Of a stretch of 64,000 bases of DNA, positions 11,648 to 57,169 are shown piece by piece. Within the stretch, counting starts at the first letter, position 1, and each line of letters opens with the position of its first letter. This DNA is from Longimicrobiales bacterium. Lineage in GTDB: Bacteria > Gemmatimonadota > Gemmatimonadetes > Longimicrobiales > Gaopeijiaceae. The notes beneath the pieces are model-generated. The model worked only from the letters and a program-made list of their open reading frames with translations, made no database searches and had not been told where the DNA came from. Position numbers and translations under genes: made by a program. The stretch covers positions 2,304,001 to 2,368,000 of the forward strand of contig OZ242008.1 of the NCBI GenBank assembly GCA_965204735.1. The letters run 5' to 3'.

Positions 11648-13054
11648 TCACGTCCCAGTCGCGAAGCGGGCCAGGGGGCGGCGAAACCGCCGCCACGTCC
11701 GCCCCAGCAGCAGAAGCGCCACGATGCCCAGCCCGACGGCCAGTCCCCACCACAGCCCGACCGGCCCCGTCCCCGCCGAGAAGCCCAGCCACAAGCTCAC
11801 CGGCAGGCCCACCAGCCAGAACGCCAGCAGGTTGTAGACGAGGGGCCGCAACGTGTCCGCCACACCCCGAAGCGCCCCTGCGCACACGACCTGGATGCCG
11901 TCGAACAGCTGGAAGACGCCCGCCACGGGAATGAGCGCCGCCGCGACCGCCACCACCTCCGGCTGATCGGCGAAGAGCCCGGCCAGCGCGTTGGGCAGCG
12001 AGAGGAAGACCGCCGCCGTGATCGTCATCAGCAGGCAGCACACCAGCACCGAGGCGCCGGCGAAGCGGCGAGCCCGATCCGGGTCGCCGGCCCCCACCGA
12101 GGCGCCGACCATCACGGCGGCCGCCTGGGCCGCTCCCACGGCCAGCATGAAGGTGAGGGCCGCCAGGTTCAGGGCGATCTGATGGCCCGCCAAGGCCACC
12201 GGCCCGAGCCATCCCATGAAGATCCCGATCGCCCCGAAGGCGCCGAACTCCAGCACGAAGTGGAGCCCGATCGGCGCCCCCAGCCGAACCATCCGCCACA
12301 GCGGTCCCCGGGCCAGCGCCTCCCGCCGCGCCGTGCGCAGGTAGGGCCGCAGCGTCGGCCACGCCATCGCCAGGACGGCCGCGAGCATGAACCAGCGGCA
12401 GATCGCGGTGGCCCAGCCGGAGCCCACGGCCCCCATCGCCGGCGCGCCCCACTTGCCGAACACCAGGACCCAGTTGGCCAAGGCGTTGAGGCCGTTGGCC
12501 AGCACCACCACGACCACGATCGCGGCCACCTTCCCCAGCGCCTGCAACGTCTGACGCAGCAGCACGAAGCCGTAGAAGGGAAGCATCCCCGCGATCAGGG
12601 CTCGGCTGTACGCCGCCGCGATCGGCGCCACGTCGTCCGGCTGTCCCAGGACGCGCAGAACCGGCCCCGCCGTAGCCAGCATCAGCGACGAGACGGCGGT
12701 CAGGACCAGGCCGAGGACGGCGCCTCGCTGAATCGCCAGCTCGATCCCCTTCCGGTCTTCCGCGCCGAAGGCCTGGGAGACGAGGGGGTCGAGGACCATG
12801 AGGACCCCCATGCCGAAGACCGACACGCCGAAGAAGTAGAGGTTCCCCAGCGCCACCGCGGCCAGGTCGGGGGCGGAGACCCGGCCCACCATCGCCGTGT
12901 CCACCAACCCCTGCATGACCATTCCCACCTGCACCACGGCCACCGGCGCCGCGAGGGAGAGGAGCCCGCGAAGCTCCGTTGCCGTGGGGCGGAAGGCGGC
13001 AAGTCCCTTGACGGGCGGGGCGCCCGCGACGCCGGCGGGACTACTCCCCCGCAT
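11648..13054 (-). CDS. MATE family efflux transporter (NorM-like)
   Basis: About 12 TM segments; VDTAMVGR, LAGHQIALN, FQLFDGIQVV..GALRG..DT. Confidence 0.93.
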   Translation of the reverse strand: MRGSSPAGVAGAPPVKGLAAFRPTATELRGLLSLAAPVAVVQVGMVMQGLVDTAMVGRVSAPDLAAVALGNLYFFGVSVFGMGVLMVLDPLVSQAFGAEDRKGIELAIQRGAVLGLVLTAVSSLMLATAGPVLRVLGQPDDVAPIAAAYSRALIAGMLPFYGFVLLRQTLQALGKVAAIVVVVVLANGLNALANWVLVFGKWGAPAMGAVGSGWATAICRWFMLAAVLAMAWPTLRPYLRTARREALARGPLWRMVRLGAPIGLHFVLEFGAFGAIGIFMGWLGPVALAGHQIALNLAALTFMLAVGAAQAAAVMVGASVGAGDPDRARRFAGASVLVCCLLMTITAAVFLSLPNALAGLFADQPEVVAVAAALIPVAGVFQLFDGIQVVCAGALRGVADTLRPLVYNLLAFWLVGLPVSLWLGFSAGTGPVGLWWGLAVGLGIVALLLLGRTWRRFRRPLARFATGT

Positions 13055-15242
13055 ACCTCCTGGGCACCGTCACCGTGAACTCGGTGAACTCGCCTTCCTT
13101 GGTCTCGACCCGGAGGCTCCCGCCGTGCTCCTGGATGATCTCGTGGGAGATCGACAACCCCAGTCCCGTGCCCTTGGTGCCGGACTTGGTGGTGAAGAAG
13201 GGGTCGAAGATCTTCTTCACCACCTTCTCGGGAATGCCCGTGCCGTTGTCCCGGATCGACACCAGCACGCGGTCCTCCTCGCCCTTGGTGCGGAGCACGA
13301 CCGTGGGCGAGTAGCCCTCTTCGCCGCTCTTGCGCCGGATCTCCGTCGCCTGGCAGGCGTTGGTGATGACGTTGAGGAAGACGCGGCTCAGGTCCCTGGC
13401 GATCGCGTGGACCTTGCCGGCGTCCTCGTCGAACTCCCGTTCGATCGTCACGTTGAACATCGAGTCGGAGGCCCGGAGCCCGTGGTAGGCCAGCTTGGCG
13501 TACTCGTCCAGCACCTGGTTCACGTCTACTTCCTCGGGCTGTCCCGCCTCCTCCCGGGAGTGGGCCAGCATCCCCTCCACGATCCGGTTGGCGCGCCCCC
13601 CGTGCTCGCGCACCTTGGTGACGTTCAGCTTCAGGTCCCCCAGGATCTCTTCCAGGTACTCGCGGTCGATCTCGCCGTTCTCGTCGTCCTCCATCTCCTC
13701 TCGGAGCTCGTCGATCAGCTCCTTCGAGAGGGCCGCGAAGTTGTTCACGAAGTTGAGCGGGTTGCGGATCTCGTGGGCGATCCCCGCGGTGAGGGCGCCC
13801 AGCGAGGCCAGCTTCTCCTGCTGGGCCACCTGCTGCTGGGTGCGCCGCAGGTTCTCCAGCGTCTCCTCCAGCGCCTCGTTCTTGGCCTGCACCTCGCTGG
13901 CCAGCTTCTCGACCAAGTTGAGGCGCTGCACCTCCAGGGCGTGCTTGCGGAAGACCTCCAGGTCCGCCGCCATGTCGGCCACTTCGTCGTCGCCAGTGAT
14001 CTCGACCTTCACCCTCAGGTCGCCCTGGGTCATGCGCCGCATGGCGTCCGAGAGGTGCTGGACCCTCGCCAGCAGCCGCTCGCCGAAGAACTTCCAGCCC
14101 ACGACGACGGCGGCGGCCACCGCCAGCACGTTGACGGTCAGGATCAGCCACCAGCCCAACCGCAGCAGCGCGCCCGAATCGGACGCGGCGGTTCGGGCCG
14201 CGCCCTCGGCGTTCCCCACCGCCTCGTTGACCTGCTCGACCAGCTCCGAACTCGTCTGGCGGTTCTGGACCAGCAACTCCTGGGAGCGCGCGATCTCCTC
14301 CAGCCACATTCGGCGGGTCGTCAGCACGCCGTCCGAGGCGCCGTCGTACAGCGCCCGCAACGCGTTCACTCGGGGCCGCAGCCGCTCGGCCAGCGCCGGG
14401 GGAACTTCGCCGAGCCCCGCCTCGAGCTGGCTGAACGCGGTGTTGAAGCGCTCCTGGTTGGCCCCCAGCTGGGTGACCAGGTCCTCCGACATCGCCTGGA
14501 ACATGACGGTGACGACCGCGCGCTGGGCGACGCGCAGGTCCACGAGCGCTCGGTGCCGGTCCAGCTCGACCTGGGCGGTCCGCGCCCCCCGGGAGGCCGG
14601 CTGGTCGGTCAGCTCCCGCAAGCCCGTGTCGATGAAGAACTCCTGGTCGTCGAGTTCGCCTTCGAGGAAGTTGGAGATGCTCAGGTCCACCGCCTCGATC
14701 TCGTCGTCGAGGGCCGCCAGCCGGGCGCCGTGCTCCAGCCTCCGGTCCACCGACGTCCTGATCTCCTCGGTCCGGGTCAAGAGGAGCCGAAGCATGGGCG
14801 CCGCGCCCTCGGTCATCCCCTCTTCCTGGGTGATGGCGGCCACCTGCTGCCCCAGGTCCTCCTCCACGGCCAGCACGGTCTGCCAGACGGTCTCCAGCGC
14901 CTCGGGCGTGTCGGCGGCGACCAGCTGGGGCGAGGCCTGGACGAGATCCGACGTGCTTCGAGCCACGGCGAAGGCGGCGACCAGGGCCGGCATGTGGCCG
15001 TCGGTGACCTCCTCCTGGCGGTTGCCCAGGATCGTCATCAGGCCCAGAGCCAGGAAGCTGGCGCACAGGGTCAGCACGACGCCGCCCCCCAGCCCCACCA
15101 CGACTTGGCTGCCGATGCCGAAGCGCCCGCCCGTGACCTTGCGCACGCGTTCGCTCACGCCTTCGGGGAGGATCGACAGAACCCACTCGAACGCCGCCTG
15201 GACGTGCTGGTCCAGTCCCTTCGGGGGACCCGCGGCCTTCAT
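13041..15242 (-). CDS. Membrane sensor histidine kinase (long helical periplasmic domain, HAMP, HisKA, HATPase)
   Basis: Two TMs around a ~270-aa helical region reminiscent of TorS sensors; EKLASLG.LTAGIAHEIRNPLNFVNNF, NVITNA, DNGTGIP, FDPFFTTK, GTGLGL. Confidence 0.93.
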   Translation of the reverse strand: MKAAGPPKGLDQHVQAAFEWVLSILPEGVSERVRKVTGGRFGIGSQVVVGLGGGVVLTLCASFLALGLMTILGNRQEEVTDGHMPALVAAFAVARSTSDLVQASPQLVAADTPEALETVWQTVLAVEEDLGQQVAAITQEEGMTEGAAPMLRLLLTRTEEIRTSVDRRLEHGARLAALDDEIEAVDLSISNFLEGELDDQEFFIDTGLRELTDQPASRGARTAQVELDRHRALVDLRVAQRAVVTVMFQAMSEDLVTQLGANQERFNTAFSQLEAGLGEVPPALAERLRPRVNALRALYDGASDGVLTTRRMWLEEIARSQELLVQNRQTSSELVEQVNEAVGNAEGAARTAASDSGALLRLGWWLILTVNVLAVAAAVVVGWKFFGERLLARVQHLSDAMRRMTQGDLRVKVEITGDDEVADMAADLEVFRKHALEVQRLNLVEKLASEVQAKNEALEETLENLRRTQQQVAQQEKLASLGALTAGIAHEIRNPLNFVNNFAALSKELIDELREEMEDDENGEIDREYLEEILGDLKLNVTKVREHGGRANRIVEGMLAHSREEAGQPEEVDVNQVLDEYAKLAYHGLRASDSMFNVTIEREFDEDAGKVHAIARDLSRVFLNVITNACQATEIRRKSGEEGYSPTVVLRTKGEEDRVLVSIRDNGTGIPEKVVKKIFDPFFTTKSGTKGTGLGLSISHEIIQEHGGSLRVETKEGEFTEFTVTVPRRYAGE

Positions 15243-16516
15243 CGGGAAAGACGCTCCACCGGCTGGAACCTGCCGCCTCGGATGACCGTCAGAAACACCT
15301 CGTCGGAGCCCTGGTTGTCGTTTTCCCCGTACTCCACGTGGAAGCCGTCCAGGTCGATGGGGCCGGCCTCGCGAAGCTCTTCGAGGAACCTAACCCGGGT
15401 GGGCTCCTCGTCGGGCTCCAGCCGCCGCAGGACTTCCGCCGCGAGGCGTCCGGCCAAGTACCCTTCCAGCGAGACGAAGCCGGGGACCGCGGCCGGCGCC
15501 ACGGCGCGGAGGGCGGCATGGTAGCTCGCCACCACGGGAACCGACAGGTCGGAGGGAAACGGCACCACCTGGGTCACCACCACCCCGTTGCCCGCGTCGC
15601 CCAGCTCGTTGAGCAAGGCGTTGCTGCCCACGAAGGAGATGTTGACGATCACCGCGTTCAACCCCAGGCGCCGCGCCCATCGGATGAAGACCGCCGTCGG
15701 TCGGTACGCCCCGATGACGATCACCGCCTGAGGGCGTCCCTCCCTGATGTCCAGAAGCGCTCGCTTCACGGCCGTGGTGTTCCGCATGTACGTGCCCTCG
15801 CTGACCAGGGACATGTTGCGCCGGCCCAGGGCGATCCGCACTCCGCTGAGGCCGGCGCGGCCGTAGCTGTCGTCCTGGTACAGGATCGCGATCCGATCGA
15901 AGCCCAGGTCGCCGTTCGCAGGGGAGCCGGTCAGGCGCGCCACCATCTCCTCGGTCTCCTGGTAGTAGGAAGCGCGCACGTTCACCACCGACGGGCGCTC
16001 GTCGGCGCGGAGGAACTCGGCCCCCGTGAACGGCGCGATGTAGGGCACCGACTGGGAGCTGGCCACCGGCTCGGCCGCCGTCGAGGTGGGGGTGCCCACC
16101 GCGCCGATCAGGCCGAAGACGCCCGATTCGATCAGCTCCGCCGTGTTGCGGGCGGCGGCCTCGGGCTCGTAGCCGTCGTCGCGGGCGATCAGCCGAAGCG
16201 CCCGGCCGTGCACGCCCCCGTCTCGGTTCGCCTCTTCGAACGCCGCCCGGATGCCCAGGTTCATGTTGGCGCCCAGCGCCATGGCGTCGCCCGACAGCGC
16301 CGCCGACTGGCCGAAGACGATCGAATCGGGGAACACTCCCTGCGACGGCTCCTGGGACGGCTCCTGGGCCGCGACGCCCCGCCCGAGCACGCCCGCCGCC
16401 GCCAGCCCGGCAACACCGCCCGCTTTGGCGAAGCCGCCCAGCCAGAGCGCGACGCCCCGCCCGAAGCCGCGTCCGCCCGGCCCCGGGCCCCTCGCCCTCC
16501 CGGCTCGCCGGCTCAC
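15239..16516 (-). CDS. Periplasmic substrate-binding protein (LivJ-like/Peripla_BP_6), no ABC permease nearby
   Basis: IVFGQSAALSG, GGVHGR, DDGYEP, GAVGTPT, VRASYYQE, YQDDSYG; GTG start overlaps the upstream stop. Confidence 0.88.
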   Translation of the reverse strand: MSRRAGRARGPGPGGRGFGRGVALWLGGFAKAGGVAGLAAAGVLGRGVAAQEPSQEPSQGVFPDSIVFGQSAALSGDAMALGANMNLGIRAAFEEANRDGGVHGRALRLIARDDGYEPEAAARNTAELIESGVFGLIGAVGTPTSTAAEPVASSQSVPYIAPFTGAEFLRADERPSVVNVRASYYQETEEMVARLTGSPANGDLGFDRIAILYQDDSYGRAGLSGVRIALGRRNMSLVSEGTYMRNTTAVKRALLDIREGRPQAVIVIGAYRPTAVFIRWARRLGLNAVIVNISFVGSNALLNELGDAGNGVVVTQVVPFPSDLSVPVVASYHAALRAVAPAAVPGFVSLEGYLAGRLAAEVLRRLEPDEEPTRVRFLEELREAGPIDLDGFHVEYGENDNQGSDEVFLTVIRGGRFQPVERLSR

Positions 16517-17667
16517 TCGGGCCCCACGTACTTGAGAGCCAAGCAGGTGATGTCGTCGGACTGGGGAGCGTCGCCGGCGTGAGCCTTCACGGCCTTCACC
16601 ACATGGCGCCTCACGTCTTCGGCGCTGGCGCCGGCGCACTCGCCCAGCGAGTTGGCCAGGGCGTCCTCGCCGAACTCCTCGCCGTCCTCGTTCATCGCCT
16701 CGGTGACGCCGTCGGTGTAGAGGAAGAAGGTGTCGCCCGGCTCCAGCTCGATGCTGCCGCCCGGAAACTCGAAGTCGGGGATCACACCCAGCACCAGCCC
16801 CGACTCGCTCTCCACCTGCCTCACCTCGCCCGACGCCTTCACCACGTACGGCAGGTTGTGGCCTCCGTTGGCGTACTCCAGCAGCCCGCTGGACGGGTTG
16901 AAGTTGGTGTAGAAGACGGTCACGAACATCGACTCCTCGTTGGACTCGGCCAGCAGGTCGTTCACCTCGGCCATGCACTTGGCCGGATCGGGGTTTCCGA
17001 TCGCCGTTCCCTTCACCAAGGTCCGGCTGACCATCATGAAGAGAGCCGCCGGCACGCCCTTCCCGGACACGTCGGCGACCACCATCGCCAGCCGGTCGTT
17101 CTCCAGCTTGAAGAAGTCGTAGAAGTCGCCCCCCACCTCCTGGGCCGGCGTCATCCACGCGTGCAGGTCGTAGCGGGGGTCGTCGGGGAAGTCGGTGGGC
17201 AGGATCGACTCCTGCATCTTGGCGGCCACCCCCAACTCCCGGCGCAGAGCCACCAGCTCGTCCCTGGACCGAAGCGCGTCGCGCATGACCTGAAGGTGGG
17301 CCAAGGTCTTGGAGATGGTGGTGTCCAAGTCGTCAAAGTCGATCGGCTTGGTCACGAAGTCGAAGGCGCCGCGGTTCATCGCGGTGCGGATGTTCTTCAT
17401 GTCCCCGTAGGCCGTGACGATCACCGCCCGAAGGTCCAGGTGGAGGCTGTTGAGCTGGTGGAGCAGGGTGAGGCCGTCCATCTCGGGCATGTTGATGTCC
17501 GACAGGACCATGTCCACGTCGCTGTGGGCCCGAAGCTTCTCCAGGGCTTGGACGCCGTTCTGGGCGAAGACCAGGTCGATCTCGCCCTTCCGTATTCTGC
17601 GGCGGAACTTCTGGGTCAGGAGTATCTCGAGATCGGGTTCGTCGTCGACGACCAGGATCTTCGCCAT
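16513..17667 (-). CDS. Response regulator fused to SpoIIE/PP2C phosphatase (RsbU/RsbP-like)
   Basis: MAKILVVDDE..LSDINMPEMDG..AFDFVTKP; VGGDFYDF, ADVSGKG, LYTDGVTEA, DDIT. Confidence 0.94.
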   Translation of the reverse strand: MAKILVVDDEPDLEILLTQKFRRRIRKGEIDLVFAQNGVQALEKLRAHSDVDMVLSDINMPEMDGLTLLHQLNSLHLDLRAVIVTAYGDMKNIRTAMNRGAFDFVTKPIDFDDLDTTISKTLAHLQVMRDALRSRDELVALRRELGVAAKMQESILPTDFPDDPRYDLHAWMTPAQEVGGDFYDFFKLENDRLAMVVADVSGKGVPAALFMMVSRTLVKGTAIGNPDPAKCMAEVNDLLAESNEESMFVTVFYTNFNPSSGLLEYANGGHNLPYVVKASGEVRQVESESGLVLGVIPDFEFPGGSIELEPGDTFFLYTDGVTEAMNEDGEEFGEDALANSLGECAGASAEDVRRHVVKAVKAHAGDAPQSDDITCLALKYVGPE

Positions 17668-17827
17668 TCGGAATCGCTCCGCGTCCCCCCGACGGGCCTT
17701 CTTCGTCCGCCGGGGGCCGGCTTGGGGATGAAGGAGGGCGGCCGCCCCGGGTGGACGACCCCATGCAACAAATGTAGCGCCCCGTCCATCGAACCGCTTG
17801 CGGACTCCGGACGCCTCGCCGTGCCGC

Positions 17828-17914
17828 GGACGGCCCCTGCGCGAGGTGGACAGCTTGGAGCCTCCCGGCGTCTCCCGAGCCTCCCGGCGGACGACCCCTG
17901 CGCAAGGTGGACAG
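17828..17914. repeat. 26-bp direct repeat in the divergent phosphatase/glnA intergenic region
   Basis: GGACGGCCCCTGCGCGAGGTGGACAG (17828) and GGACGACCCCTGCGCAAGGTGGACAG (17889), 2 mismatches. Confidence 0.8.
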
Positions 17915-17936
17915 TCCCCGTCGAATCTTGTACAAT
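17908..17936 (+). promoter_or_regulatory. Sigma70-type promoter of glnA
   Basis: TGGACA (17908)-N17-TACAAT (17931), each 5/6 match to consensus. Confidence 0.6.
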
Positions 17937-18010
17937 GTTGCCGCGCGGACGGGCGGACCCGACCGGCGCGACCTAATCCCTTCAGCCCCATGAGGAGACC
18001 ACTCCGCAAG

Positions 18011-19420
18011 ATGGCAGACATCGACGCAGTGCTCGGAACGATCCGAGACCGGGACGTGGAGTTCGTGGACCTGCGGTTCACGGATCCCCGCGGCCGCTGG
18101 CACCACGTGACCCTGACGACGGACGCCTTCGACGAGGACGCCTTCGAGGACGGAATCATGTTCGACGGTTCCTCCATCGCAGGCTGGAAGAGCATCGACA
18201 AGTCCGACATGGCTCTCTTTCCGGACCCCGGGACCGCCGCCATGGACCCCTTCATGGCCGACAGGACGCTCTATCTGATCTGCGACGTCCACGAGCCCAC
18301 GACCGGCGAGCGCTACTCCCGCTGTCCCCGCTCCACCGCCAAGGACGCCGAGGCGTACCTGGCCTTCTCGGGAGTCGGCGACACGGCCTACTTCGGCCCA
18401 GAGCCGGAGTTCTTCCTCTTCGACGACGTGCGCTTCGGCGTCGACCCGAACCACTCCTTCTTCCGGCTGAACGACGTGGAGGGCCCCTACAACACGGGCA
18501 GCGCGCTGGAAGGCGGGAACAAGGGCCACCGGCCGCGCACCAAGGGCGGCTACTTCCCCCTCCCGCCGGTGGACTCGGTGCAGGACGTCCGCAGCGACAT
18601 GCTCAAGGCGCTCAACCACGCCGGCGTCGCCGTGGAGAAGCACCACCACGAGGTCGCGGCCAGCCAGCACGAGCTGGGGATCGTCTTCGCCCCCATGACG
18701 ATGATGGGCGACAAGCTCCAGGTGTACCGCTACGTGGTGCTGAACGTGGCGGCGCGTCACGGCAAGACGGCGACCTTCATGCCGAAGCCGGTCGTCGGCG
18801 ACAACGGCTCCGGGATGCACTGCAACCAGTCCGTCTGGAAGGAAGGCGAGAACCAGTTCTCGGGAACGGGCTACTCCGACCTTTCGGAGACCGCCCTCCA
18901 CTACATCGGCGGGATCATGAAGCACGCCCGGGCGATCAACGCCTTCTCCAACCCCAGCACGAACAGCTACAAGCGCCTCGTGCCGGGCTTCGAGGCGCCG
19001 GTGCTCCTGGCCTACTCGGCCCGCAACCGCTCCGCCTCCTGCCGCATCCCCCACGTCACGTCGGCGAAGGCCCGACGGGTCGAAGTCCGCTTCCCGGACC
19101 CCACGGCCAACCCCTACCTGGCGTTCTCGGCCATGCTGATGGCCGGGCTGGACGGCATCGAGAACCGGATCGACCCCGGCCCGCCGATGGACAAGGATCT
19201 CTACGCTCTGCCGCCGGAGGAGCTGAAGGACATCCCCACCGTCTCCCACTCGCTGCGGGACGCCTTGGACGCCCTCGAGTCGGACCACGAGTTCCTGACC
19301 CGGGGCGATGTGTTCACCAAGGACCAGATCGACGCCTACGTCGAGCTCAAGATGGACGAGGTGGTGCGGTTCGAGCAGGCGCCCCACCCGGTCGAGTACG
19401 ACATGTACTTCTCGCCGTGA
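18011..19420 (+). CDS. glnA: Glutamine synthetase type I (adenylylatable)
   Basis: [49 protein letters not shown], adenylylation loop [11 protein letters not shown]. Confidence 0.98.
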
Positions 19421-19475
19421 CCGCTGGGGAAGACGCGAACCGCAACGAACAGCGAGAACCACGGCCGAGCACGGC

Positions 19476-22433
19476 GTGACGACCGACGGCGTGCTTGCCG
19501 TTGCGGCAGGCGTTCCCGGGTTCGGAAGCCTTCGGGGACACAGGGAGGAAGCCGCGGCGGCAGGGCTGTCCCGGTTGCGCGACGCGGCCGAGCGAACGGG
19601 AAGGACGGCTCTCGGGGAGGCCTTGGGGTCCCCCGAGGGCCGGGTCTTCTTCTCGTTTCTGCTGGGCAACAGCCCCTACCTGACTCGACTGCTCCTCCGG
19701 GACCTGGAGTTCTCCCAGAGCCTGGTGGAGGATTCGCCGGACGCCGTGGTCGGCAGGATTCGGAACGAGCTGGCGGAGGCCGATCCGACGATGGGCCGGG
19801 ACGAGCTCATGAAGTTCCTGCGCTTCCAGCGGAGCCGGGTGGCCGTGGTCGCGGCGGCGTGGGACTGCTTCGGCGTCGCCGACGTCATGGAGTGCTGCGC
19901 GCTCCTCTCGGACATGGCCGACCACGCCGTCCGCCTGGCCGTCTCCCACCTGCTGCTGGACCGGGTGCGGCGCGGCGAGATGAAGCTGCCCGAGGAGGAG
20001 TCGCCCGGAGGCAGCAGGCGCTGGGGGTACTTCGCGCTGGCCATGGGCAAGCACGGCTCCCGCGAGCTCAACTACTCCTCCGACGTCGACTTGGTGGTGC
20101 TCTACGACCCCGATGCCGTGGAGTACACCGGCTCGCGGAGCCTGCGGGACTGCTTCGTCCGGGTCACCCGCGACCTGGCCCGCATCCTCCAGGCGCGCAC
20201 CGCCGACGGATACGTCTTCCGCACGGACCTGCGCCTCCGTCCCGACGCGTCGTCCACCCCTCCGGCGATCGAGGTGGAGTTCGCGCTGAACTACTACAAC
20301 ACCTTCGGGCGCACCTGGGAGCGGGCCGCCCTGATCAAGGCGCGCCCCGTGGGCGGGGACCTGGAGGCGGGCGCGGCGTTCCTGTCGCGGCTGTCGCCCT
20401 TCATCTGGGACGAGGGACTCGATTTCACTTCGGTGGAGGAGATCCGCTCGATGAGTCAGCAGATCCACGACTTCCACGGCCACGGCGCCGTCTCGGCGGC
20501 AGGTCACGACGTGAAGCTGGGACGCGGCGGCATACGCGAGATCGAGTTCTTCGTCCACATGCACCAGCTGGCCTACGGAGGGCGCAACCGCAGGCTGCGG
20601 GGGGCCGGGCTGCTGGCGATGCTGGAGACGCTGGAGGAGGAGAACCACGTCCTGCCCCGGGAGACGGCCACGCTGCGCAAGAGCTACCTGCTGCTGCGGC
20701 GGGTCGAGCACCGCCTCCAGATGATCAACGACGACCAGACCCAGAAGCTCCCCGAGACGGCGGACGGGCTGGAGCACGTGGCCGCGTTCATGGGGCTTTC
20801 GTCCGCCGAAGAGCTGTCGGGGATGGTCGAGCGCTCGGCCGATCAGGTCCACGACCTCTACCGCACCCGCTTCAACGTCCCCGAGAGCGAGCAGGACATC
20901 ACCGCCACGATCCTGGAGGGTCCCGAGGGCTCCTCCGACGCCGTGGCGAAGCTGGAGGCCGCCGGATTCGTCCGGGCCCTCACCGCCGTGGAGATATTCC
21001 GGGGCTGGGCCGAGGGCCGCTACGAGGCCACGAGCACGGAGCGCGCGCGGACGATCGTCCGGGAGATCCTCCACGAGATCATCGCCGCGCTGGGCAAGAC
21101 CCCCGACCCGGACCGGGCGCTCGCCCGGATGGACAAGTTCCTGGACGCCCTCCCCGAAGACGTCTCCTTCTTCTCCATGCTTCGGGCCAACACCTGGCTC
21201 CTCAACCTCATCGCCGTCGTGATGGGAAGCGCCCCCCGGATCGCGGACACGCTGGGCGCCCACCCTCGTCTGCTGAAGGCGGTGCTGGACCCGTCGTTCT
21301 TCCTGCCGCTTCCCGACCGGGCATCCCTCGTCGCGGAGCTGGAGGAGCAGCTGGAGGAAGTGGCGGGCGCCGAGGAGCGGAGCGCCCGAACGGCGGCGTG
21401 GGCGGACGACCGCCGCTTCCAGGTCGGCGTCCAGACGTTGCAGAACCTGGTCACCGTGGACGAGGCGTCCACGTCCCTCTCCCACATCGCCGAGGTGTCG
21501 ATAGAGGTTCTGCTGCGGGACGTGCTGGCCGAGCTTCGGGAGCGCCACGGCGAGGTGCCGGGAAGCTCGTGCGCCGTGGTGGCGATGGGCAAGCTGGGCG
21601 CCCTCGAGATGACCTTCGAGTCGGACCTGGACCTCCTCTTCGTCGCCGACGTGGAGGACGAGTCGCGGGAGAGCCTGGGACCCAAGCCCGTCGAGGCCCG
21701 GCGCTTCTACGCCCGGGCGGCGCAGCGGCTGATCGCCGCCCTCCAGACCCGGTCGGCGGCCGGCAAGCTCTACGAGGTGGACATGCGGCTGCGGCCTTCG
21801 GGCGAGAGCGGACCGCTGGTGACCACGCTTCGCGCCTTCCGCGAGTACCACGCAGGAGCTGCCTGGACGTGGGAGCACATGTCGCTCACCCGGGCCCGGG
21901 TCGTGGCGGGGGACCCTGCGGCGGTAGCGGCTGCGGAGGCCGAGATCCGGAGGGTCCTGACCCGCGACCGCGACCCGGACGAGCTGCTCCGGGACGTGGC
22001 GCAGATGCGTCGGCGGGTCGCCGCCGAGTACCCGTCCACCGAGCCCTTCGAGCTCAAGTACGTGCGGGGCGGACTTGTGGACTTGGAGTTCGTCGCCCAG
22101 TATCTTCAGTTGCTCCATGCGAAGCACGACCCCCAGGTGTTGGCCGGGGGAACCGTTGCATGCTTGCGGGCCCTTGCAGGCGCGGGATTCCTGGACGCCG
22201 AAGAAGCCGAGTTCTTGGCCGACGCGGTTGGAATGCAGCGTGCCATCCAAGCGATCTTGAGGCTCGCATGGAGCGGAAGCGACTCGGTGCGTTCGGCCCC
22301 GAAGGCACTTCGCAGCAAGCTGGCCAACGCCCTCGAATGCGACGACTTCGACGAGCTGGAGTCGAAGCTGCGGGGCACGCAGGAGAAGGTGCACGAAGCC
22401 TTCCGTCGCCACCTCGGCCGGGAGGTCGAATGA
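19476..22433 (+). CDS. glnE: Bifunctional glutamine synthetase adenylyltransferase/adenylyl-removing enzyme
   Basis: Two NT domains: MGKHGSRELNYSSDVDL..DLRLRPD..WERAA..KLGRGGIREIEF and MGKLGALEMTFESDLDL..DMRLRPSG..GGLVDLEF. Start approximate. Confidence 0.96.
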   Translation: MTTDGVLAVAAGVPGFGSLRGHREEAAAAGLSRLRDAAERTGRTALGEALGSPEGRVFFSFLLGNSPYLTRLLLRDLEFSQSLVEDSPDAVVGRIRNELAEADPTMGRDELMKFLRFQRSRVAVVAAAWDCFGVADVMECCALLSDMADHAVRLAVSHLLLDRVRRGEMKLPEEESPGGSRRWGYFALAMGKHGSRELNYSSDVDLVVLYDPDAVEYTGSRSLRDCFVRVTRDLARILQARTADGYVFRTDLRLRPDASSTPPAIEVEFALNYYNTFGRTWERAALIKARPVGGDLEAGAAFLSRLSPFIWDEGLDFTSVEEIRSMSQQIHDFHGHGAVSAAGHDVKLGRGGIREIEFFVHMHQLAYGGRNRRLRGAGLLAMLETLEEENHVLPRETATLRKSYLLLRRVEHRLQMINDDQTQKLPETADGLEHVAAFMGLSSAEELSGMVERSADQVHDLYRTRFNVPESEQDITATILEGPEGSSDAVAKLEAAGFVRALTAVEIFRGWAEGRYEATSTERARTIVREILHEIIAALGKTPDPDRALARMDKFLDALPEDVSFFSMLRANTWLLNLIAVVMGSAPRIADTLGAHPRLLKAVLDPSFFLPLPDRASLVAELEEQLEEVAGAEERSARTAAWADDRRFQVGVQTLQNLVTVDEASTSLSHIAEVSIEVLLRDVLAELRERHGEVPGSSCAVVAMGKLGALEMTFESDLDLLFVADVEDESRESLGPKPVEARRFYARAAQRLIAALQTRSAAGKLYEVDMRLRPSGESGPLVTTLRAFREYHAGAAWTWEHMSLTRARVVAGDPAAVAAAEAEIRRVLTRDRDPDELLRDVAQMRRRVAAEYPSTEPFELKYVRGGLVDLEFVAQYLQLLHAKHDPQVLAGGTVACLRALAGAGFLDAEEAEFLADAVGMQRAIQAILRLAWSGSDSVRSAPKALRSKLANALECDDFDELESKLRGTQEKVHEAFRRHLGREVE

Positions 22434-22909
22434 GGGAAGGCCGAGCCGGGAGAAGCAGCTGCGTGGGTCCCAAGGTGAAGACGGACGTCAAGCTGGACGA
22501 GGCCGAACCGAGGCGCGTGGTCAAGCTCTTCGAGCACTTCGCAGCCGAGCACGGATTGCCCGTCGAGATGGTGCAGCGCTTCGAGCTGGCTCTGGACGAG
22601 GTCTTGACCAACGTGGTGAGCTACGCCTTTCCCGACGGCGCCGAAGACCCCAGCGTCAGGGTGACGATGCAGATGGACGACGCGTGGCTGAAGGTTCGGG
22701 TCCAGGACAACGGACCCGAGTTCGACCCGCTCCACGATGCTCAGGAGCCCGATCTTTCCCTCGACGCCGAAGAGCGCCCCATTGGGGGCCTCGGCATCTT
22801 CCTCGCCAAGACGTTCGTCCATACGCTCACCTACGAGCGAGTGGACGGATGCAACCGCCTTACCCTCTCACAGCCCCTGGAGGCTCCCTCGGAGAACGCC
22901 AATCCATGA
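22430..22909 (+). CDS. Anti-sigma factor/serine kinase (RsbW/SpoIIAB-like HATPase_c_2)
   Basis: LALDEVLTNVVSYA, QDNGPEFDP, RPIGGLGIFL, YERVDGCNRLTL; ATG overlaps the glnE stop (ATGA). Confidence 0.92.
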   Translation: MREGRAGRSSCVGPKVKTDVKLDEAEPRRVVKLFEHFAAEHGLPVEMVQRFELALDEVLTNVVSYAFPDGAEDPSVRVTMQMDDAWLKVRVQDNGPEFDPLHDAQEPDLSLDAEERPIGGLGIFLAKTFVHTLTYERVDGCNRLTLSQPLEAPSENANP

Positions 22910-23238
22910 AAGTGACCACGACGCATTCCGGGAACACGGCGGTGGCCGCCGTGAACGGCCGGGTCGACTCCGCCAACGCGAAGGACCTGGACCAGGAACT
23001 CAGCACCATCATCGAAGGGGGCGTCAACCACCTGGTGGTCGACTGCTCCGAGCTGAGCTACATCAGCAGCGCCGGCCTCCGCGCGCTCCTCGTCGCCATC
23101 AAGAAGACCAACGCGGCCGGCGGAGGCGTGGCGATGTGCCAAGTCCCGCCGCACATCCGCGAGGTGCTGGAGGTCAGCGGCTTCACGCGCCTGACCAAGG
23201 TCTTCGACACCTCGGCGGAAGCCGAAGCCAGCTTCTAG
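22906..23238 (+). CDS. STAS-domain anti-anti-sigma factor (RsbV/SpoIIAA-like)
   Basis: GRVDSANA, VDCSELSYISSAGLR (phosphoacceptor Ser motif), EVLEVSGF; ATGA overlap. Confidence 0.93.
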   Translation: MKVTTTHSGNTAVAAVNGRVDSANAKDLDQELSTIIEGGVNHLVVDCSELSYISSAGLRALLVAIKKTNAAGGGVAMCQVPPHIREVLEVSGFTRLTKVFDTSAEAEASF

Positions 23239-23269
23239 CCTAGCCTGGCTCCGGCGCGCCAGCAGCTTT

Positions 23270-23420
23270 CTAGCTCCGGCGCCCCCCGGCTGGCGCCCCT
23301 TTGCGGCGGGCAGCTTGCGGGCGCCGGCCCCCCGGCTGGCCCCTTTGCGGCGGGCGGCTTTCTGGCTCCGGCCCCCCGGCTGGCACCCCTTTGCGGCGGG
23401 CAACTTGCGGGCGACCGCCC
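23270..23420. repeat. Three imperfect ~46-bp tandem repeats between convergent genes
   Basis: Core CCCCGGCTGGC(N)CCCCTTTGCGGCGGGC(RR)CTT at about 23284, 23330 and 23374. Confidence 0.85.
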
Positions 23421-23463: not shown

Positions 23464-24531
23464 CTAGAAGAAGGTGAACGCCTGCACCTTGAAGGACCAC
23501 TCGGTCTGGTTCTCTATCGTCCGATAGAAGTCCAGGTTGGCCGAGATGCCGTTCCTGCCCGCGGCGTACAGCATGACCCCTGGCGTGACCACCAGACCGC
23601 TCACGTTCGCGCCTTCGTCGTTCTCGGTGCGGGCCCAGCTCAGCCGGAAGAGGGGCTCGACTCCCGCGAAGGCCCGGTCCTCCGCCAGGGGCACGTACCA
23701 CAGCCCCATGACCTGGAAGGCCGAGAAGCCCGCCTCGTCGTTCACCTTCCAGTTCCGGCCGGTTGTGCCGTTCACGAGGAGGTGGGGGCCGTCGCGCCAC
23801 GTGCCGACCTCCAGCTCCATGCCGTAGGCGGGAACCCGCAGCGTCTGGTCCTCGGAGCCCAGCGTCTCGTCCATGGCCGCGTACGCGGACAGCCGACCGC
23901 GGTCGCCGAAGAAGTAGGAAAGCCGGCCTGACGCGGACTTGGCGTTGTTCACGTCCTTCTTGCTGATGCCCTGGCCGTTGGTCAGGGTGAAGCGGTATCC
24001 CAAGCGGCGGTTCGCGAACCGCCCGGTGGCGAGGATGCCGGGTTCGTAGCCGTCCAGGCCCAGGCTGAAGGTCAGCTTGCCGAACGAGCACACGCCCCCC
24101 ACGCCGGGACACTCGTCGATGCCGGTGACCCGACCGTCCCGCTCGATCAGGGGCAGGTCGGAGTTGGCCGCGAGCCAGAAGTAGGAGACGGCCCGCTTGA
24201 ACTGGCCGATCTGCAGCTGGAAGGATTCGGAAGGCGTCAGGGCGAGATACGCCTCCAGCGTGGTGGACCCTTGGGCGTCGAACTGGAGGCGTCCCCCCAC
24301 CAGGTCGTTGAGGGAGCCGTCGATGGTGACCCAGGCTCGGCGGATGAAGAAGCTGGACGGCGCGGCGCTGGGGCCCGGCATCTCGTACTGGGCCTGGATT
24401 CGCGCGCCCAGTGTGACACTGGACCCGCTGCGGGCAGTGAAGGTCTGGGCGGCGGAGGGCGCCGCCGCGCCGGCGGCCAGGACCATCGCTGCCAGAACGC
24501 CGGCCGAGTGTCGAAGGGCACGGTGGGTCAT
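23464..24531 (-). CDS. Outer-membrane porin (OprO/OprP-like)
   Basis: Signal peptide ending PSAA-Q; FFIRRAWV, IGQFKR; amphipathic strands; C-terminal Phe. Confidence 0.75.
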   Translation of the reverse strand: MTHRALRHSAGVLAAMVLAAGAAAPSAAQTFTARSGSSVTLGARIQAQYEMPGPSAAPSSFFIRRAWVTIDGSLNDLVGGRLQFDAQGSTTLEAYLALTPSESFQLQIGQFKRAVSYFWLAANSDLPLIERDGRVTGIDECPGVGGVCSFGKLTFSLGLDGYEPGILATGRFANRRLGYRFTLTNGQGISKKDVNNAKSASGRLSYFFGDRGRLSAYAAMDETLGSEDQTLRVPAYGMELEVGTWRDGPHLLVNGTTGRNWKVNDEAGFSAFQVMGLWYVPLAEDRAFAGVEPLFRLSWARTENDEGANVSGLVVTPGVMLYAAGRNGISANLDFYRTIENQTEWSFKVQAFTFF

Positions 24532-24630
24532 GGGGGATTCGTCGTCCTTGGGTTGGTCGGGGCGAAGTTGGTGCAGTACCAATCTAGCCCCCGACCTCTC
24601 GCCGGGGCGAATCCGCGGTCAAGCGCGCGC

Positions 24631-35178: not shown

Positions 35179-35211
<33 letters not shown>

Positions 35212-35584: not shown

Positions 35585-37006
35585 ATGAACGGAACCGAAG
35601 CAGGAATCCTTGGCCGCGGCAGGCTCGCCCGGCGCGCCGCCCTCGCCGGAGCCGCCCTGGCCGCCCTCGGGCTTCTGCTGGCCCCCGCGGTCGCCGTCGC
35701 CCAGACCACCGAGACCCAGTTCGTCCTCAACACGTTCTCCTTCCTGGTCTGGGGAGCGCTGGTCATGTGGATGTGCGCCGGCTTCACGATGCTGGAGTCG
35801 GGCTCGGTGCGTTCCAAGAACGCTTCCGTGATCTGCCTCAAGAACATCGGCCTCTACTCCGTCGCCGGGCTGGCCTTCTACACGCTCGGGTACAACCTGA
35901 TGTACGGGGGCGAGGCCGGGGGCTGGATCGGGTCGTTCGAGTTCTTCTACGGACCGTCCGAGGCGGAGCAGGCCCTCCTGGACGGCGACGCCGGGGCAAC
36001 CGCGACGGTCGTGGAGAACGGCTACGCGGTCATGTCCGACTGGTTCTTCCAGATGGTCTTCGTCGCCACCACGGCGTCGATCGTGTCGGGGGCGCTGGCG
36101 GAGCGGGTGAAGCTTTGGTCGTTCTTCGCCTTCACGGCGATCCTGACCATGGCGATCTACCCCGTCGTGGGCTCTTGGACGTGGGGCGCGGGCTGGCTCG
36201 CCGAGATGGGGTTCGCCGACTTCGCCGGTTCGACGATCGTCCACTCCACCGGCGGCTGGGCCGCACTGGCGGGGATCCTGGTGGTCGGCCCGCGGTGGGG
36301 CAAGTTCCGGGCCGACGGAACGGTCAAGGCCACGCCTCCGTGCAACATTCCCACGGTCACGCTGGGAGTCTTCATCTTGTGGCTGGGCTGGTTCGCCTTC
36401 AACGGGGGCTCCGTGCTGGCCCTGGGCGACGCGAGCAGCGCCGTCACCATGAGCAACGTGATCGTGGACACCAACCTGGCGGCGGCCGCGGGCGTCCTGG
36501 CGGCGCTGGCCGTGTCCCGTCCGATCCTGGGGCGCATCGACCTCTTCGCCGCCCTGAACGGGGCGATCGCGGGCCTGGTGTCGATCACCGCAGGCCCCGA
36601 CGTGATCGGCAGCGGCCACGCGATCCTGGTGGGCGCCGTGGGCGCCGTGATCTGCACGGCGGGCCTCAGGCTGCTGGAGTCCTTCCGGCTGGACGACGTG
36701 GTGGGGGCCGTTCCCGCCCACCTCTTCGCCGGCATCTGGGGAACGCTGGCCGTCGGCATCTTCGGCGGCGCGAACATTGGCGTCCAGGCAGTCGGCGTGC
36801 TGTCGGTGGGCGTCTTCGTCTTCTCGGTGTCGTGGGTCGTGTGGATGGCGCTGGACAAGACGATCGGCGTGCGCGTGAGCCGGCAGGTCGAGGAGCTGGG
36901 ACAGGACGCCGCCGAGCTGGGAATCGACGCCTACCCCGAGTTCGTGCTGATGGTGGACCCGGACGACGGGGCGGACTACAGGGAGCCCGACCGAGCAAGC
37001 ATCTAG
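35585..37006 (+). CDS. amtB: Ammonium transporter
   Basis: AGFTMLESG.VRSKN, FFQMVF..T..SIVSGA.AER, DFAGSTIVH, LWLGWFAFNGGS, DDVVGAVPAH. Confidence 0.97.
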   Translation: MNGTEAGILGRGRLARRAALAGAALAALGLLLAPAVAVAQTTETQFVLNTFSFLVWGALVMWMCAGFTMLESGSVRSKNASVICLKNIGLYSVAGLAFYTLGYNLMYGGEAGGWIGSFEFFYGPSEAEQALLDGDAGATATVVENGYAVMSDWFFQMVFVATTASIVSGALAERVKLWSFFAFTAILTMAIYPVVGSWTWGAGWLAEMGFADFAGSTIVHSTGGWAALAGILVVGPRWGKFRADGTVKATPPCNIPTVTLGVFILWLGWFAFNGGSVLALGDASSAVTMSNVIVDTNLAAAAGVLAALAVSRPILGRIDLFAALNGAIAGLVSITAGPDVIGSGHAILVGAVGAVICTAGLRLLESFRLDDVVGAVPAHLFAGIWGTLAVGIFGGANIGVQAVGVLSVGVFVFSVSWVVWMALDKTIGVRVSRQVEELGQDAAELGIDAYPEFVLMVDPDDGADYREPDRASI

Positions 37007-37019
37007 GCGCCGAGCGCAA

Positions 37020-38504
37020 ATGGGGAAGCACCTGGCGGCCCCGGATCCCGCGAGCCAGAGAGCGGGGTCCGGGGCCTTCGGGCACTACGAGCTGGACCCG
37101 GCCTTCCACGACGAGATGTTCGGGGAGGACGGGAAGCCTCGGGCTGCCTGCCGGCGGCTGGCCGGGGCGTTGGCGGCGACGCCGCCGGAGGAGCTGGCCA
37201 AGCTGCAGGCGGGGGTCGCCCGCCGCTTCCTCCACGAAGGGATCACGTTCACGGTCCTGGGCAAGCAAGAGGTCTCGGAGCAGATCATCCCCATCGACTG
37301 CGTGCCGAGGCTGATCACCGCCGCCGAGTGGGACCACGTCGAGCGGGGGCTGAAGCAGCGCCTTCGCGCCCTCAACCTCTTCGTCAAGGACGTGTACCAC
37401 GACGCGCGGTGCGTGCGTGCCGGCGTGGTGCCGGCCGACCTGGTGTTCGGGTGCCCTCAGTACCGCGCGCAGATGCGGAGGCTGAAGGTCCCCCACGACA
37501 TCTACGTGGCGGTGTGCGGAACCGACGTGGTGCGCACCCGAGACGGCTTCGCGGTGCTGGAGGACAACCTGCGGGTGCCCTCCGGGGTGTCGTACATGCT
37601 GGCGTGCAGAGCCGCCATGAAGGGGGCCTTCCCCACCCTCTACCGGGAGCACGGAGTGCGCGAGGTGTCCGGCTACGCTCGCCGCCTCTACGCCACGCTG
37701 GCGTCGCTGGGGACGGGCGGCGACGAGCCTCGGGTGGCGCTTCTCACGCCGGGACGATACAACTCGGCCTACTACGAGCACGCCTTCCTGGCCGGCGAGA
37801 TGGGAGCGGAGCTGGTCGAGGGCCGGGACCTGGTGGTGCGAGACGCGGTCCTCTACGCCCGCACCGCCGCCGGCCTGCGGCGCATCGACATTCTCTACCG
37901 GCGCGTGGACGACGACTTCTTGGATCCGGTCTCCTTCCGCAGCGACTCGATGCTGGGCGCGGCAGGGCTCTTCCACGTCTACCGGGCGGGCAACCTGGTC
38001 CTGGCCAACGCTCCTGGAACGGGCGTGGCCGACGACAAGGGCCTGTACGCCTACGTGCCCAGGATCATCCGCTGGTTCCTGGACGAAGAGCCGATCCTGG
38101 CCAACGTGGACACGCGGCTCTGCCGGGAGCCGGAGGGACTGTCGTACACGCTGGAGCACCTGCACGAGGTGGTGGTGAAGGAGGTGGCGGGCTCCGGCGG
38201 CTACGGCATGCTGATCGGCCCCCACGCCTCGGCCGGGGAGCGCGCCGACTTCGCCGAGCGGATCAAGGCGAACCCGGCCAACTACGTCTCCCAGCCGGTG
38301 CTGGCGCTCTCCCGGGCCGGGTGCTTCGTGGACGGGAGGCTCGAGCCCCGCCACGTGGACCTGCGTCCCTTCGTCCTCCAGGGCCGCAACGAGCAGCACG
38401 TGGTGCCCGGCGGTCTGTGCCGGGTGGCGCTGCCCCGGGGCAGCCTGGTGGTGAATTCGAGCCAGGGGGGCGGCTGCAAGGACCTCTGGGTCCTGAAGGC
38501 CTGA
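37020..38504 (+). CDS. Circularly permuted type 2 ATP-grasp protein (DUF404/DUF407)
   Basis: GITF, LEDNLRVPSGVSY, LTPGRYNSAYYEH, YRRVDDDFLDP, GVADDK, GSGGYG, PRHVDLRPF, VVNSSQGGG.KD.W. Confidence 0.95.
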   Translation: MGKHLAAPDPASQRAGSGAFGHYELDPAFHDEMFGEDGKPRAACRRLAGALAATPPEELAKLQAGVARRFLHEGITFTVLGKQEVSEQIIPIDCVPRLITAAEWDHVERGLKQRLRALNLFVKDVYHDARCVRAGVVPADLVFGCPQYRAQMRRLKVPHDIYVAVCGTDVVRTRDGFAVLEDNLRVPSGVSYMLACRAAMKGAFPTLYREHGVREVSGYARRLYATLASLGTGGDEPRVALLTPGRYNSAYYEHAFLAGEMGAELVEGRDLVVRDAVLYARTAAGLRRIDILYRRVDDDFLDPVSFRSDSMLGAAGLFHVYRAGNLVLANAPGTGVADDKGLYAYVPRIIRWFLDEEPILANVDTRLCREPEGLSYTLEHLHEVVVKEVAGSGGYGMLIGPHASAGERADFAERIKANPANYVSQPVLALSRAGCFVDGRLEPRHVDLRPFVLQGRNEQHVVPGGLCRVALPRGSLVVNSSQGGGCKDLWVLKA

Positions 38505-38528: not shown

Positions 38529-39506
38529 ATGCTGGCAAGGGTCGCCGGAGAGTTCTACTGGATGGGCCGCTACTTGGAGCGGACGGAGCACACGTCCCGG
38601 CTGCTGGTGCGCCAGCTGGCGCGCCTGGTCGATTCTCCGGCGGACGAGCTGGCGGCGGGGTGGAGCGCGCTCTACCGGGCGCTTCGCCAGCCGGTGCCCG
38701 ACGTTTCGGAGGACGCCGACGAGGCCGAGGTCTTCCTGGTCGCCGACGCCTACACGCTGGCCGGCAGCTTGGTGGAGGCGAGGGCGAACCAGGACTCGGT
38801 CCTGTCGTGCTGGGCGGCGGCCCGGGAGAACGCCCGGCAAGTACGGCCCCAGCTGCCGCTGAAGGTCTGGACGTGCCTCAACCAGGGCTTCCTGTGGCTG
38901 CGGGAGAACGACTTCGCCGAAGCTTGGGCGGTGGGCCCCGCCAGTCTGGTGGGCGAGGTCGTCGACCGGATGCGCCTCCTGGCGGGGGTGGTGGACGCCC
39001 GAATGCCCCGGGACGACGCGTGGCGGTTCATGGAGCTCGGCCGGTTCGTGGAGCGGACCAGCCAGCAGGCGGTTCTGCTGGAGACGTGGAACGACCGCGG
39101 CCGTCGAGACGGGAGCGGGCCAGCCGCTCCGGCTTGGTCGGACCTGCTGCGGATCTGCGACGCCTACGAGCTCTACTGTCGAACCCACTCGATGGCGGTG
39201 CGCCGGGAGAAGGTCCTGGACCTGCTGATCCGCAACCCGGAAGTTCCGCGCTCGCTGCGCTTCTGCGTTCAGCGCGCCGGCGACCTGCTGGCCGGGATCG
39301 ACCCGAAGGGCGCGCGCTACCCCCTGGCCCCGCCCCATCGAGCGGCGCTGCGGCTGGCGGCCGCCGTCGAGATCGAGGCGCCGGACCGCGCCGCCGAGCC
39401 GGGAGGCGTCAGCTTCTTCGCGGCCCTGGAGCGGGACGGGGCCGCGCTTCACGACCTGATCCTGGGAAGCTACGTGGACTACCCGGCGCTGGGCGCGGCC
39501 TCGTGA
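38529..39506 (+). CDS. Alpha-E domain protein (DUF403)
   Basis: MLARVA..YWMGRYLERTE, ARENAR..R, LGRFVER, PRSL.F. Confidence 0.93.
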   Translation: MLARVAGEFYWMGRYLERTEHTSRLLVRQLARLVDSPADELAAGWSALYRALRQPVPDVSEDADEAEVFLVADAYTLAGSLVEARANQDSVLSCWAAARENARQVRPQLPLKVWTCLNQGFLWLRENDFAEAWAVGPASLVGEVVDRMRLLAGVVDARMPRDDAWRFMELGRFVERTSQQAVLLETWNDRGRRDGSGPAAPAWSDLLRICDAYELYCRTHSMAVRREKVLDLLIRNPEVPRSLRFCVQRAGDLLAGIDPKGARYPLAPPHRAALRLAAAVEIEAPDRAAEPGGVSFFAALERDGAALHDLILGSYVDYPALGAAS

Positions 39507-41363: not shown

Positions 41364-41437
41364 TCGGGGCGCCCGGATTCGAACCGGGGACCTCCTGCTC
41401 CCAAAGCAGGCGCGCTGCCGGGCTGCGCCACGCCCCG
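41364..41437 (-). tRNA. tRNA-Pro(TGG)
   Basis: CGGGGCGTGGCGCAGCCCGGCAGCGCGCCTGCTTTGGGAGCAGGAGGTCCCCGGTTCGAATCCGGGCGCCCCGA; CCA not encoded. Confidence 0.96.
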
Positions 41438-57072: not shown

Positions 57073-57169
57073 TGGCGGGGGCGTGTGGGAATCGAACCCA
57101 CCCGCCCGGGTTTTAGCCGGACGCACTGGTTTTGAAGACCAGACGGAACACCAGTCCCGATCCGCCCCC
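57073..57169 (-). tRNA. selC: tRNA-Sec(TCA)
   Basis: 97 nt, CTGGT-CTTCAAA-ACCAG anticodon arm, long variable arm, GGTTCGATTCC T-loop, extended acceptor stem, encoded CCA. Confidence 0.93.

Follow-up and report, generated by a model that had tools for sequence, protein, structure and literature searches.

In the RsbU/RsbV/RsbW-sigmaB and SpoIIE/SpoIIAA/SpoIIAB-sigmaF partner switches, as the available part of a review describes them (PMC8256260), a PP2C phosphatase, a GHKL serine kinase and a single-domain STAS protein with a conserved serine act on a sigma factor. Proteins of the same three kinds are encoded on either side of glnA and glnE in a 64,000-nucleotide stretch of a Longimicrobiales genome (Gemmatimonadota; contig OZ242008.1, positions 2,304,001 to 2,368,000), which we call the window, together with an orphan periplasmic binding protein and a sensor histidine kinase. 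This module differs from the canonical switches in that it includes no sigma gene, its genome encodes no SigB/F-type sigma factor, its signal enters through a periplasmic binding protein and a putatively TorS-like kinase, and its neighbors are nitrogen genes. The RsbK-RsbY variant of Bacillus cereus likewise places a histidine kinase upstream of a receiver-PP2C phosphatase. By three of four testable features the module is a partner switch; what it lacks is the cognate sigma factor.

Systems in which the STAS or RsbW component acts on a non-canonical and partly unknown target are already represented by SypA/SypE of Vibrio fischeri, BtrU/V/W of Bordetella and the chlamydial Rsb proteins, and the module resembles them in this respect; their outputs, as far as the review's available text goes, are biofilm formation, type III secretion and growth, which differ from the nitrogen link reported here (PMC8256260). 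A term search of that review did not return the words nitrogen, ammonium or glutamine. A nitrogen-tied partner switch is known from Anabaena, but NfsR/NfsS, as presented in the accessible part of the report, is canonical, binding SigC/SigE and controlling heterocyst development (PMC13712970).

PII is the textbook controller of the ammonium transporter Amt and of GlnE, and how nitrogen is regulated in bacteria without PII is an open question. The PII (GlnB/GlnK)-GlnD-GlnE-AmtB cascade, in the portion of the source available to us (PMC6490700), has as targets the two proteins that we predict for the module. Bifunctional GlnE and type I glutamine synthetase are shared with the window genome, whereas PII and GlnD are not; the cascade employs a uridylylated PII trimer, the module presumably a phosphorylated STAS protein, and the module's input is extracellular. 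The module is PII-like in its predicted targets and is not a member of the PII system. The glnK-amtB linkage sets a small regulator gene beside amt, much as STAS stands here.

At its sensory end, where an orphan binding protein is encoded beside a kinase whose sensor domain may be of the helical TorS type, the module recalls TorT-TorS. TorT, however, is a Peripla_BP_1 protein and the window's a Peripla_BP_6 protein, and where TorT-TorS-TorR couples a hybrid kinase to a DNA-binding regulator, the module's kinase is non-hybrid, with neither receiver nor Hpt domain, and its response regulator is the receiver-PP2C phosphatase (PMC8050422, available part). Marine Candidatus Pelagibacter lacks PII, GlnD and NtrBC, and the control proposed for it in the available text, NtrY/X with RNA elements, is unlike the module (PMC3870248). 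SAR11 Amt-GI5 also links an Amt to the PP2C family, but there the phosphatase is fused to a sensing Amt, and the accessible part of the paper proposes no target (PMC11796062). The terms GlnE and anti-sigma are absent from the main texts of these last two papers. A literature search, with most subscription papers and supplements outside its reach, returned no account of Amt or GlnE being controlled by a partner switch.

The switch and nitrogen genes as a conserved unit

A preliminary description of the window had wrapped the switch around glnA-glnE and offered it as a candidate nitrogen regulator in place of PII and NtrBC. The seven genes it named, their orientations and their overlapping start and stop codons are all present in the sequence, and the sigma70-type promoter it read for glnA agrees with -35/-10 boxes spaced 17 bp apart, a match to consensus only, in a region that lacks a strict sigma54 site. 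It overlooked amt and the genes for a circularly permuted ATP-grasp protein (CP-ATP-grasp) and an alpha-E protein, which are part of the block, about 12 kb downstream, masked by an inserted adhesin gene. All three congeners share the order kinase-binding protein-phosphatase / glnA-glnE-RsbW-STAS / porin / amt-ATP-grasp-alpha-E, and the 3503-residue cadherin-repeat gene is absent at the corresponding place in each. ATP-grasp and alpha-E genes open the Anbu operon, and nitrogen starvation is reported to bring high expression of its Anbu gene (PMC6376114).

With the phosphatase as query (lacking its last 21 residues, here and in the family survey below), the best 80 of 591 confirmed stretches, out of an estimated total of about 1800, were examined as loci. 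All five signaling genes are present in 56 of the 80, and a nitrogen gene lies within about 10 kb in 55: amt in 44, ATP-grasp/alpha-E in 32, glnE in 8, glnK in 4 and glnA in 2. By groups assigned from record titles, nitrogen-linked loci number 17 of 24 in Gemmatimonadota, 12 of 15 in Latescibacterota, 13 of 24 in Dehalococcoidia (Chloroflexota), 6 of 8 in Gammaproteobacteria, 3 of 4 in Alphaproteobacteria and 2 of 3 in Acidobacteriota, with 1/1 each for Binatota and an unclassified proteobacterium. They span six phyla and, read by eye, about a dozen gene orders; the linked Amt proteins form two subfamilies, about 30% identical, and two GlnE lineages are linked to the module. What these loci conserve is the switch together with nitrogen genes, and not the glnA-glnE pair. 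The tie to nitrogen made in the preliminary description thus extends far beyond the window genome, while glnA-glnE gives up the central place it had there. In the survey of glnE neighborhoods that it suggested, 80 loci from metagenomes (identity 37-45% in 79 and 67% in one, on a short contig) yielded one STAS match and no RsbW or phosphatase, and linkage of canonical glnE to the switch is rejected.

A separate sample consisted of 300 genomes drawn evenly from the class of an alphaproteobacterial module carrier. The binding protein was found in 22 of 301, and 20 of 24 matches were fetched as loci. Amt genes stand at four of five full-switch loci (two of them near-identical) and at one of 15 without the switch; the nitrogen link therefore goes with the switch and not with the sensor. 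Some form of tie between the module and nitrogen we regard as very probable.

The window genome is a single contig of 4.14 Mb, 98% complete. It and three congeners gave no PII match in a search whose control detected PII in 13 of 14 reference genomes. GlnD had no match in the window genome, and none of 16 family genomes passed the cutoff; NtrC gave nothing above cutoff in the window genome, with a strict model that only 1 of 14 controls passes. The lack of PII, GlnD and NtrC, first noticed in the window, thus holds genome-wide as far as these searches go: no canonical system turned up elsewhere in the genome, and the linkage is not peculiar to it. RpoN is present, with three sigma54 activators.

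STAS and GlnE as candidate points of contact

STAS marks the likely output of the switch, judging by where its gene is found. Among 67 loci, 27 have it immediately beside amt, glnK, glnE or ATP-grasp, and in 11 a single gene intervenes. A STAS-family search of 33 genomes, from which 20 copies outside known loci were fetched, placed a detached STAS directly behind amt in four of five gammaproteobacterial genomes, the module of these four lacking STAS, and one Latescibacterota genome has an RsbW-STAS-amt-ATP-grasp-alpha-E string. The remaining copies have an ATP-grasp operon, a GPP34 gene, a duplicate of the module or unrelated genes beside them. Ser55 is invariant across 50 sequences, and the best PDB matches are anti-sigma antagonists. 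A predicted complex of unphosphorylated STAS with two Amt copies scored 0.44 against 0.00 for the best control, with at least 88% contact agreement between runs and a partner pLDDT (predicted local distance difference test) of at least 84. Of 157 solved pairs, 116 attain the mark for such scores, as do 2 of 215 mismatched ones, a calibration only roughly valid for STAS-Amt; among pairs at the mark, scores at or below 0.60 comprise only 18 solved pairs and both mismatches. The model lends weak support to the idea that STAS binds Amt.

The evidence on GlnE is new. In trees the window's GlnE falls in a long-stemmed clade with copies from a Latescibacterota genome and from Gammaproteobacteria; glnE is rare in the window's family (22 of 314 genomes). 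A strict three-residue test, which counts G-K to G-R changes as loss, finds both catalytic motifs in 51 of the clade's 97 protein clusters, a failed adenylylating motif in 32 and failure of the two together in 14. The intact copies checked are in genomes with type I glnA, and clade-specific conserved residues are numerous in the N-terminal half. In one gammaproteobacterial family an extra, adenylylation-dead GlnE of the window's clade occurs in 6 of 201 genomes, with STAS directly behind it in five, and STAS thus accompanies this clade even apart from the rest of the module; all six carry the phosphatase (44 of 201 overall) and their own type I glutamine synthetase, and the one STAS following such a copy that was placed on a tree groups with that of the window (support 95). 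In two Alphaproteobacteria a second GlnE copy, of another lineage and with its motifs intact, also precedes STAS.

The sister genus g66 carries this further. Its genomes keep glnE in 12 of 53 cases, with no match in 41, and type I glutamine synthetase is found in none of the 12. Seven copies were examined; each stands upstream of RsbW-STAS and has its N-terminal motif broken, and one carries a frameshift. The ratio of nonsynonymous to synonymous substitution rates (dN/dS, by the Nei-Gojobori method, excluding the binding-protein rows of locus L025 for a wrong-frame gene call) is 0.22 for two g66 copies (0.15 in the N-terminal half) at a dS of 0.85, compared with 0.16-0.22 for intact pairs; a third dead copy gives 0.47-0.49. 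The branch without both catalytic motifs appears, from the 0.22 of this one pair, to stay under purifying selection. Dead and extra GlnE copies beside STAS are the strongest sign that GlnE may be physically in the switch, as target or as input.

Two further observations concern these genes. Three g66 genomes (G062, G068 and G070) gave only a weak glutamine-synthetase match in a family search, in a frame of 730-820 codons, and such a frame also occurs in the window genome, at 3485601, besides glnA; from its length we read it as putatively type III. Partial GlnE-like matches of about 400 residues, apparently single-domain, are present at loci L196, L197, L199, L200 and L206 of Dehalococcoidia and Latescibacterota.

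A proposed mechanism and its competitors

We propose that the partner switch controls nitrogen uptake and assimilation post-translationally, with STAS acting in a PII-like manner on Amt and on this GlnE clade, and we give the proposal an even chance of being right. The binding protein and kinase would sense a solute outside the cell and activate the receiver-PP2C phosphatase, and this enzyme and the RsbW-like kinase would, to judge from their families, set the phosphorylation of STAS Ser55. STAS would then bind Amt and the GlnE proteins of this clade, as PII does elsewhere, a step suggested by gene order and by the one weak model. In the window's lineage GlnE and Amt would have no evident controller other than the switch, which in Proteobacteria and Latescibacterota would operate alongside PII. 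A bolder form of the idea holds that phospho-STAS is a second, unrelated solution to PII's job, one that gates Amt and steers a rewired GlnE on an extracellular signal, that has fully replaced PII and GlnD in this lineage, and under which GlnE persists as a selected pseudo-enzyme without catalytic sites and substrate. We entertain this form tentatively and suspect that it is somewhat more apt to fail than to stand. If the proposal is true, a core metabolic enzyme and a channel join sigma factors as targets of partner switching. The module is in any event a concrete, small and purifiable candidate (STAS, RsbW, PP2C, GlnE, glutamine synthetase and Amt) found in at least six phyla, and the natural series of intact, half-dead and dead GlnE proteins offers a direct separation of catalytic from regulatory roles.

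Several findings weigh against STAS as a PII-like effector of nitrogen proteins. In 29 of 67 loci STAS neither abuts a nitrogen gene nor lies one gene from it; at five loci in three phyla it abuts a gene for GPP34 (Golgi phosphoprotein 3-like), possibly a further target; and the fetched DNA of 25 of the 80 loci holds no nitrogen gene. A weak search of longer proteins for STAS fusions found none with Amt or GlnE, only two with phosphotransferases. The Amt model contains a dimer instead of the natural trimer and gives no interface. The counts are not independent, since the carrier genomes are related and a single ancestral cassette may have passed between them, and because glnE has been lost from most g66 module genomes, GlnE cannot be the universal target. 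PII and GlnD, finally, often coexist with the module. Of the 80 loci's genomes, 50 were chosen for assembly quality and spread, and 31 of these have a PII match, including 8 of 8 Latescibacterota and 11 of 11 Proteobacteria; GlnD is over cutoff in 17 of 24 module genomes outside the window's family.

It follows from this coexistence that the module replaces PII at most in the window's lineage and elsewhere stands beside it, as it does literally in the amt-glnK-STAS strings found among module loci. Strict PII replacement as a general rule is rejected, and the stand-in for PII suggested in the preliminary description is not supported as a general one. PII is absent from 13 of 15 Gemmatimonadota module genomes. 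The window's family has the module in 27 of 151 genomes, and a PII match occurs in 6 of these 27 (all one genus) as against 97 of the 124 without the module, 65 of the 97 at E<1e-14 by hand count; these genomes are related, and the comparison carries no statistic.

Alternatively, a nitrogen-responsive switch may have a transcriptional output: the RsbW-like protein would bind a sigma factor, RpoD-like or extracytoplasmic function (ECF)-like, or some other regulator, and the linked amt, glnE and ATP-grasp genes would be no more than co-regulated neighbors. Sigma control is what the family canonically exerts; the housekeeping sigma factor is a reported target of chlamydial RsbW (PMC8256260), and NfsS of Anabaena binds SigC/SigE under nitrogen control (PMC13712970). 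Partners would be at hand in the window genome, whose 20 sigma70 domains, read by eye, are 3 RpoD-like and 17 ECF-like with none of SigB/SigF/FliA type, and ATP-grasp/alpha-E are members of the operon whose Anbu gene is reported as induced by nitrogen starvation (PMC6376114). We nevertheless consider a transcriptional output unlikely, if the most serious competitor: no sigma gene is among the recurrent neighbors of module loci; no shared operator, sigma54 site or alternative promoter was seen by eye upstream of glnA, amt or ATP-grasp; and after the module splits it is STAS rather than RsbW that remains with amt or glnE. GlnE might also feed the switch and not only obey it, this clade conveying to STAS/RsbW, as input or scaffold, the state of nitrogen inside the cell (glutamine, for instance, or a nucleotide), an arrangement compatible with an Amt output. 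On that account GlnE has been kept after losing catalysis and substrate because of this role, and the motif losses in the clade, the doubly dead copies directly upstream of RsbW-STAS in genomes without type I glutamine synthetase, the dN/dS of the one dead pair and the conserved residues of the N-terminal half all fit. The signs of decay do not: one frameshifted copy, one locus with only a remnant, the higher ratio of the third dead copy and the 41 of 53 g66 genomes without a glnE match; the dead proteins might, moreover, have another partner or unrecognized residual activity, and a role as input strikes us as improbable.

Least probable of all, in our estimation, is that the switch has an unrelated job, in the control of stress, surface or host interaction, and that a single cassette, spread horizontally, carries the nitrogen genes as passengers. 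Patchy distribution over phyla, and within the family (glnE in 22/314 genomes, the module in 27/151), fits transfer; the same binding-protein/sensor pair feeds chemoreceptors and adenylate cyclase elsewhere; and GPP34 is an alternative neighbor of STAS. Yet the linkage outlasts inversions and splitting and involves two Amt subfamilies, two GlnE lineages and glnK, and with a single amt in a 4.1 Mb genome, proximity within 10 kb would arise by chance about 0.5% of the time.

Features of the locus and the sensor pair

Features of the window, and of GPP34 genes at other loci. Positions are those of the window unless a locus (L number) is given.
Feature	Position	Strand	Remarks
Sensor histidine kinase	13041..15242	-	Putative TorS-like periplasmic domain, HAMP, HisKA, HATPase; no receiver domain; Pfam and NCBIfam
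Orphan LivJ-type binding protein	15239..16516	-	Peripla_BP_6; GTG start inferred from overlap with PP2C stop
Receiver-PP2C (SpoIIE-type) phosphatase	16513..17667	-	384 aa
Sigma70-like -35/-10 promoter of glnA	17908..17936	+	Boxes 17 bp apart; only a consensus match
Type I glutamine synthetase, glnA	18011..19420	+	TIGR00653 above cutoff
Bifunctional GlnE	19476..22433	+	PRK14108 above cutoff; both catalytic motifs intact; distinct module-linked clade
RsbW-like serine kinase	22430..22909	+	HATPase_c_2 (PF13581); true start may be some codons downstream
Single-domain STAS	22906..23238	+	PF01740 and TIGR00377 above cutoff; Ser55 predicted phosphorylation site
Porin O/P-like gene	23464..24582	-	Between STAS and amt in many Longimicrobiales loci
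Cadherin/Ig-repeat surface protein	24631-35142	-	3503 residues; separates porin from amt in the window
Ammonium transporter, amt	35585..37006	+	Marine subtype; only amt match in genome; no glnK
CP-ATP-grasp protein	37020..38504	+	Anbu-operon type
Alpha-E domain protein	38529..39506	+	
Further tRNA	41364-41437	-	Rfam
tRNA-Sec	57077-57169	-	Rfam
GPP34 gene beside STAS	L054:8778-9434		
GPP34 gene beside STAS	L233:5998-6654		
GPP34 gene beside STAS	L298:5858-6523		
GPP34 gene beside STAS	L301:6241-6897		
GPP34 gene beside STAS	L305:7242-7892		

The four-base overlaps of stop and start codons read GTGA between phosphatase and binding protein and ATGA between binding protein and kinase, glnE and RsbW, and RsbW and STAS. 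The phosphatase matches PF07228 (E 1e-50) and has the metal-binding aspartate motifs, strict patterns for which fit 39 to 69 of 76 phosphatase homologues; among those of the RsbW-like kinase, the N and G2 boxes are present in 75 of 75 and the G1 pattern in 63 of 75. The sensor kinase has an H-box and two transmembrane helix peaks, and its residues 56-479 match the TorS model TIGR02956 at E 2e-39, below the cutoff; PF21689 matches related receptors and not the window's kinase. The glnA product carries the tyrosine of the adenylylation motif known from E. coli.

The glnA and amt promoters look housekeeping-type in their sequence. A strict sigma54 consensus was not found in the phosphatase-glnA intergenic region, and boxes similar to the glnA -35/-10 pair are present, read by eye, in the congeners. 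The same spacer contains a 20-bp direct repeat (17835-17916) whose second copy lies over the -35 box, and imperfect GC-rich repeats follow the 3' end of STAS (23240-23420); neither is evident by eye in the congeners. A long G run stands at about 35180-35206, after the cadherin-repeat gene. Rfam reported no riboswitch in the window, only its two tRNAs, and an unsupervised clustering of open reading frames, made up chiefly of shadow frames, yielded no additional nitrogen gene. A second, unrelated STAS-RsbW-PP2C cluster, 26-30% identical, is found at 570454-572857 of the contig among housekeeping genes, with no sigma factor; cross-talk with the nitrogen-linked module is possible.

The binding protein is modeled at a pLDDT of 93, and sequence and fold searches agree on a LivJ-type fold, relatives of which bind amino acids, oxo-acids, aromatics, pyroglutamate or urea. 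Since the closest structure, 4kv7 (39%), is uncharacterized, we name no ligand, and the amino acid or amide of the preliminary description is a candidate only; the cleft residues are common to module copies and chemoreceptor-linked copies, which suggests one small attractant molecule. At most of the 15 alphaproteobacterial loci without a switch, the neighbor of the binding protein is a chemoreceptor, cyclase or hybrid kinase, and three of these neighbors match the TorS sensor domain. The binding protein and its sensor are apparently a reusable, uncharacterized sensing pair. Pairings of the binding protein with chemoreceptors or adenylate cyclase are seen at L232, L239, L240, L242, L244 and L247-L251.

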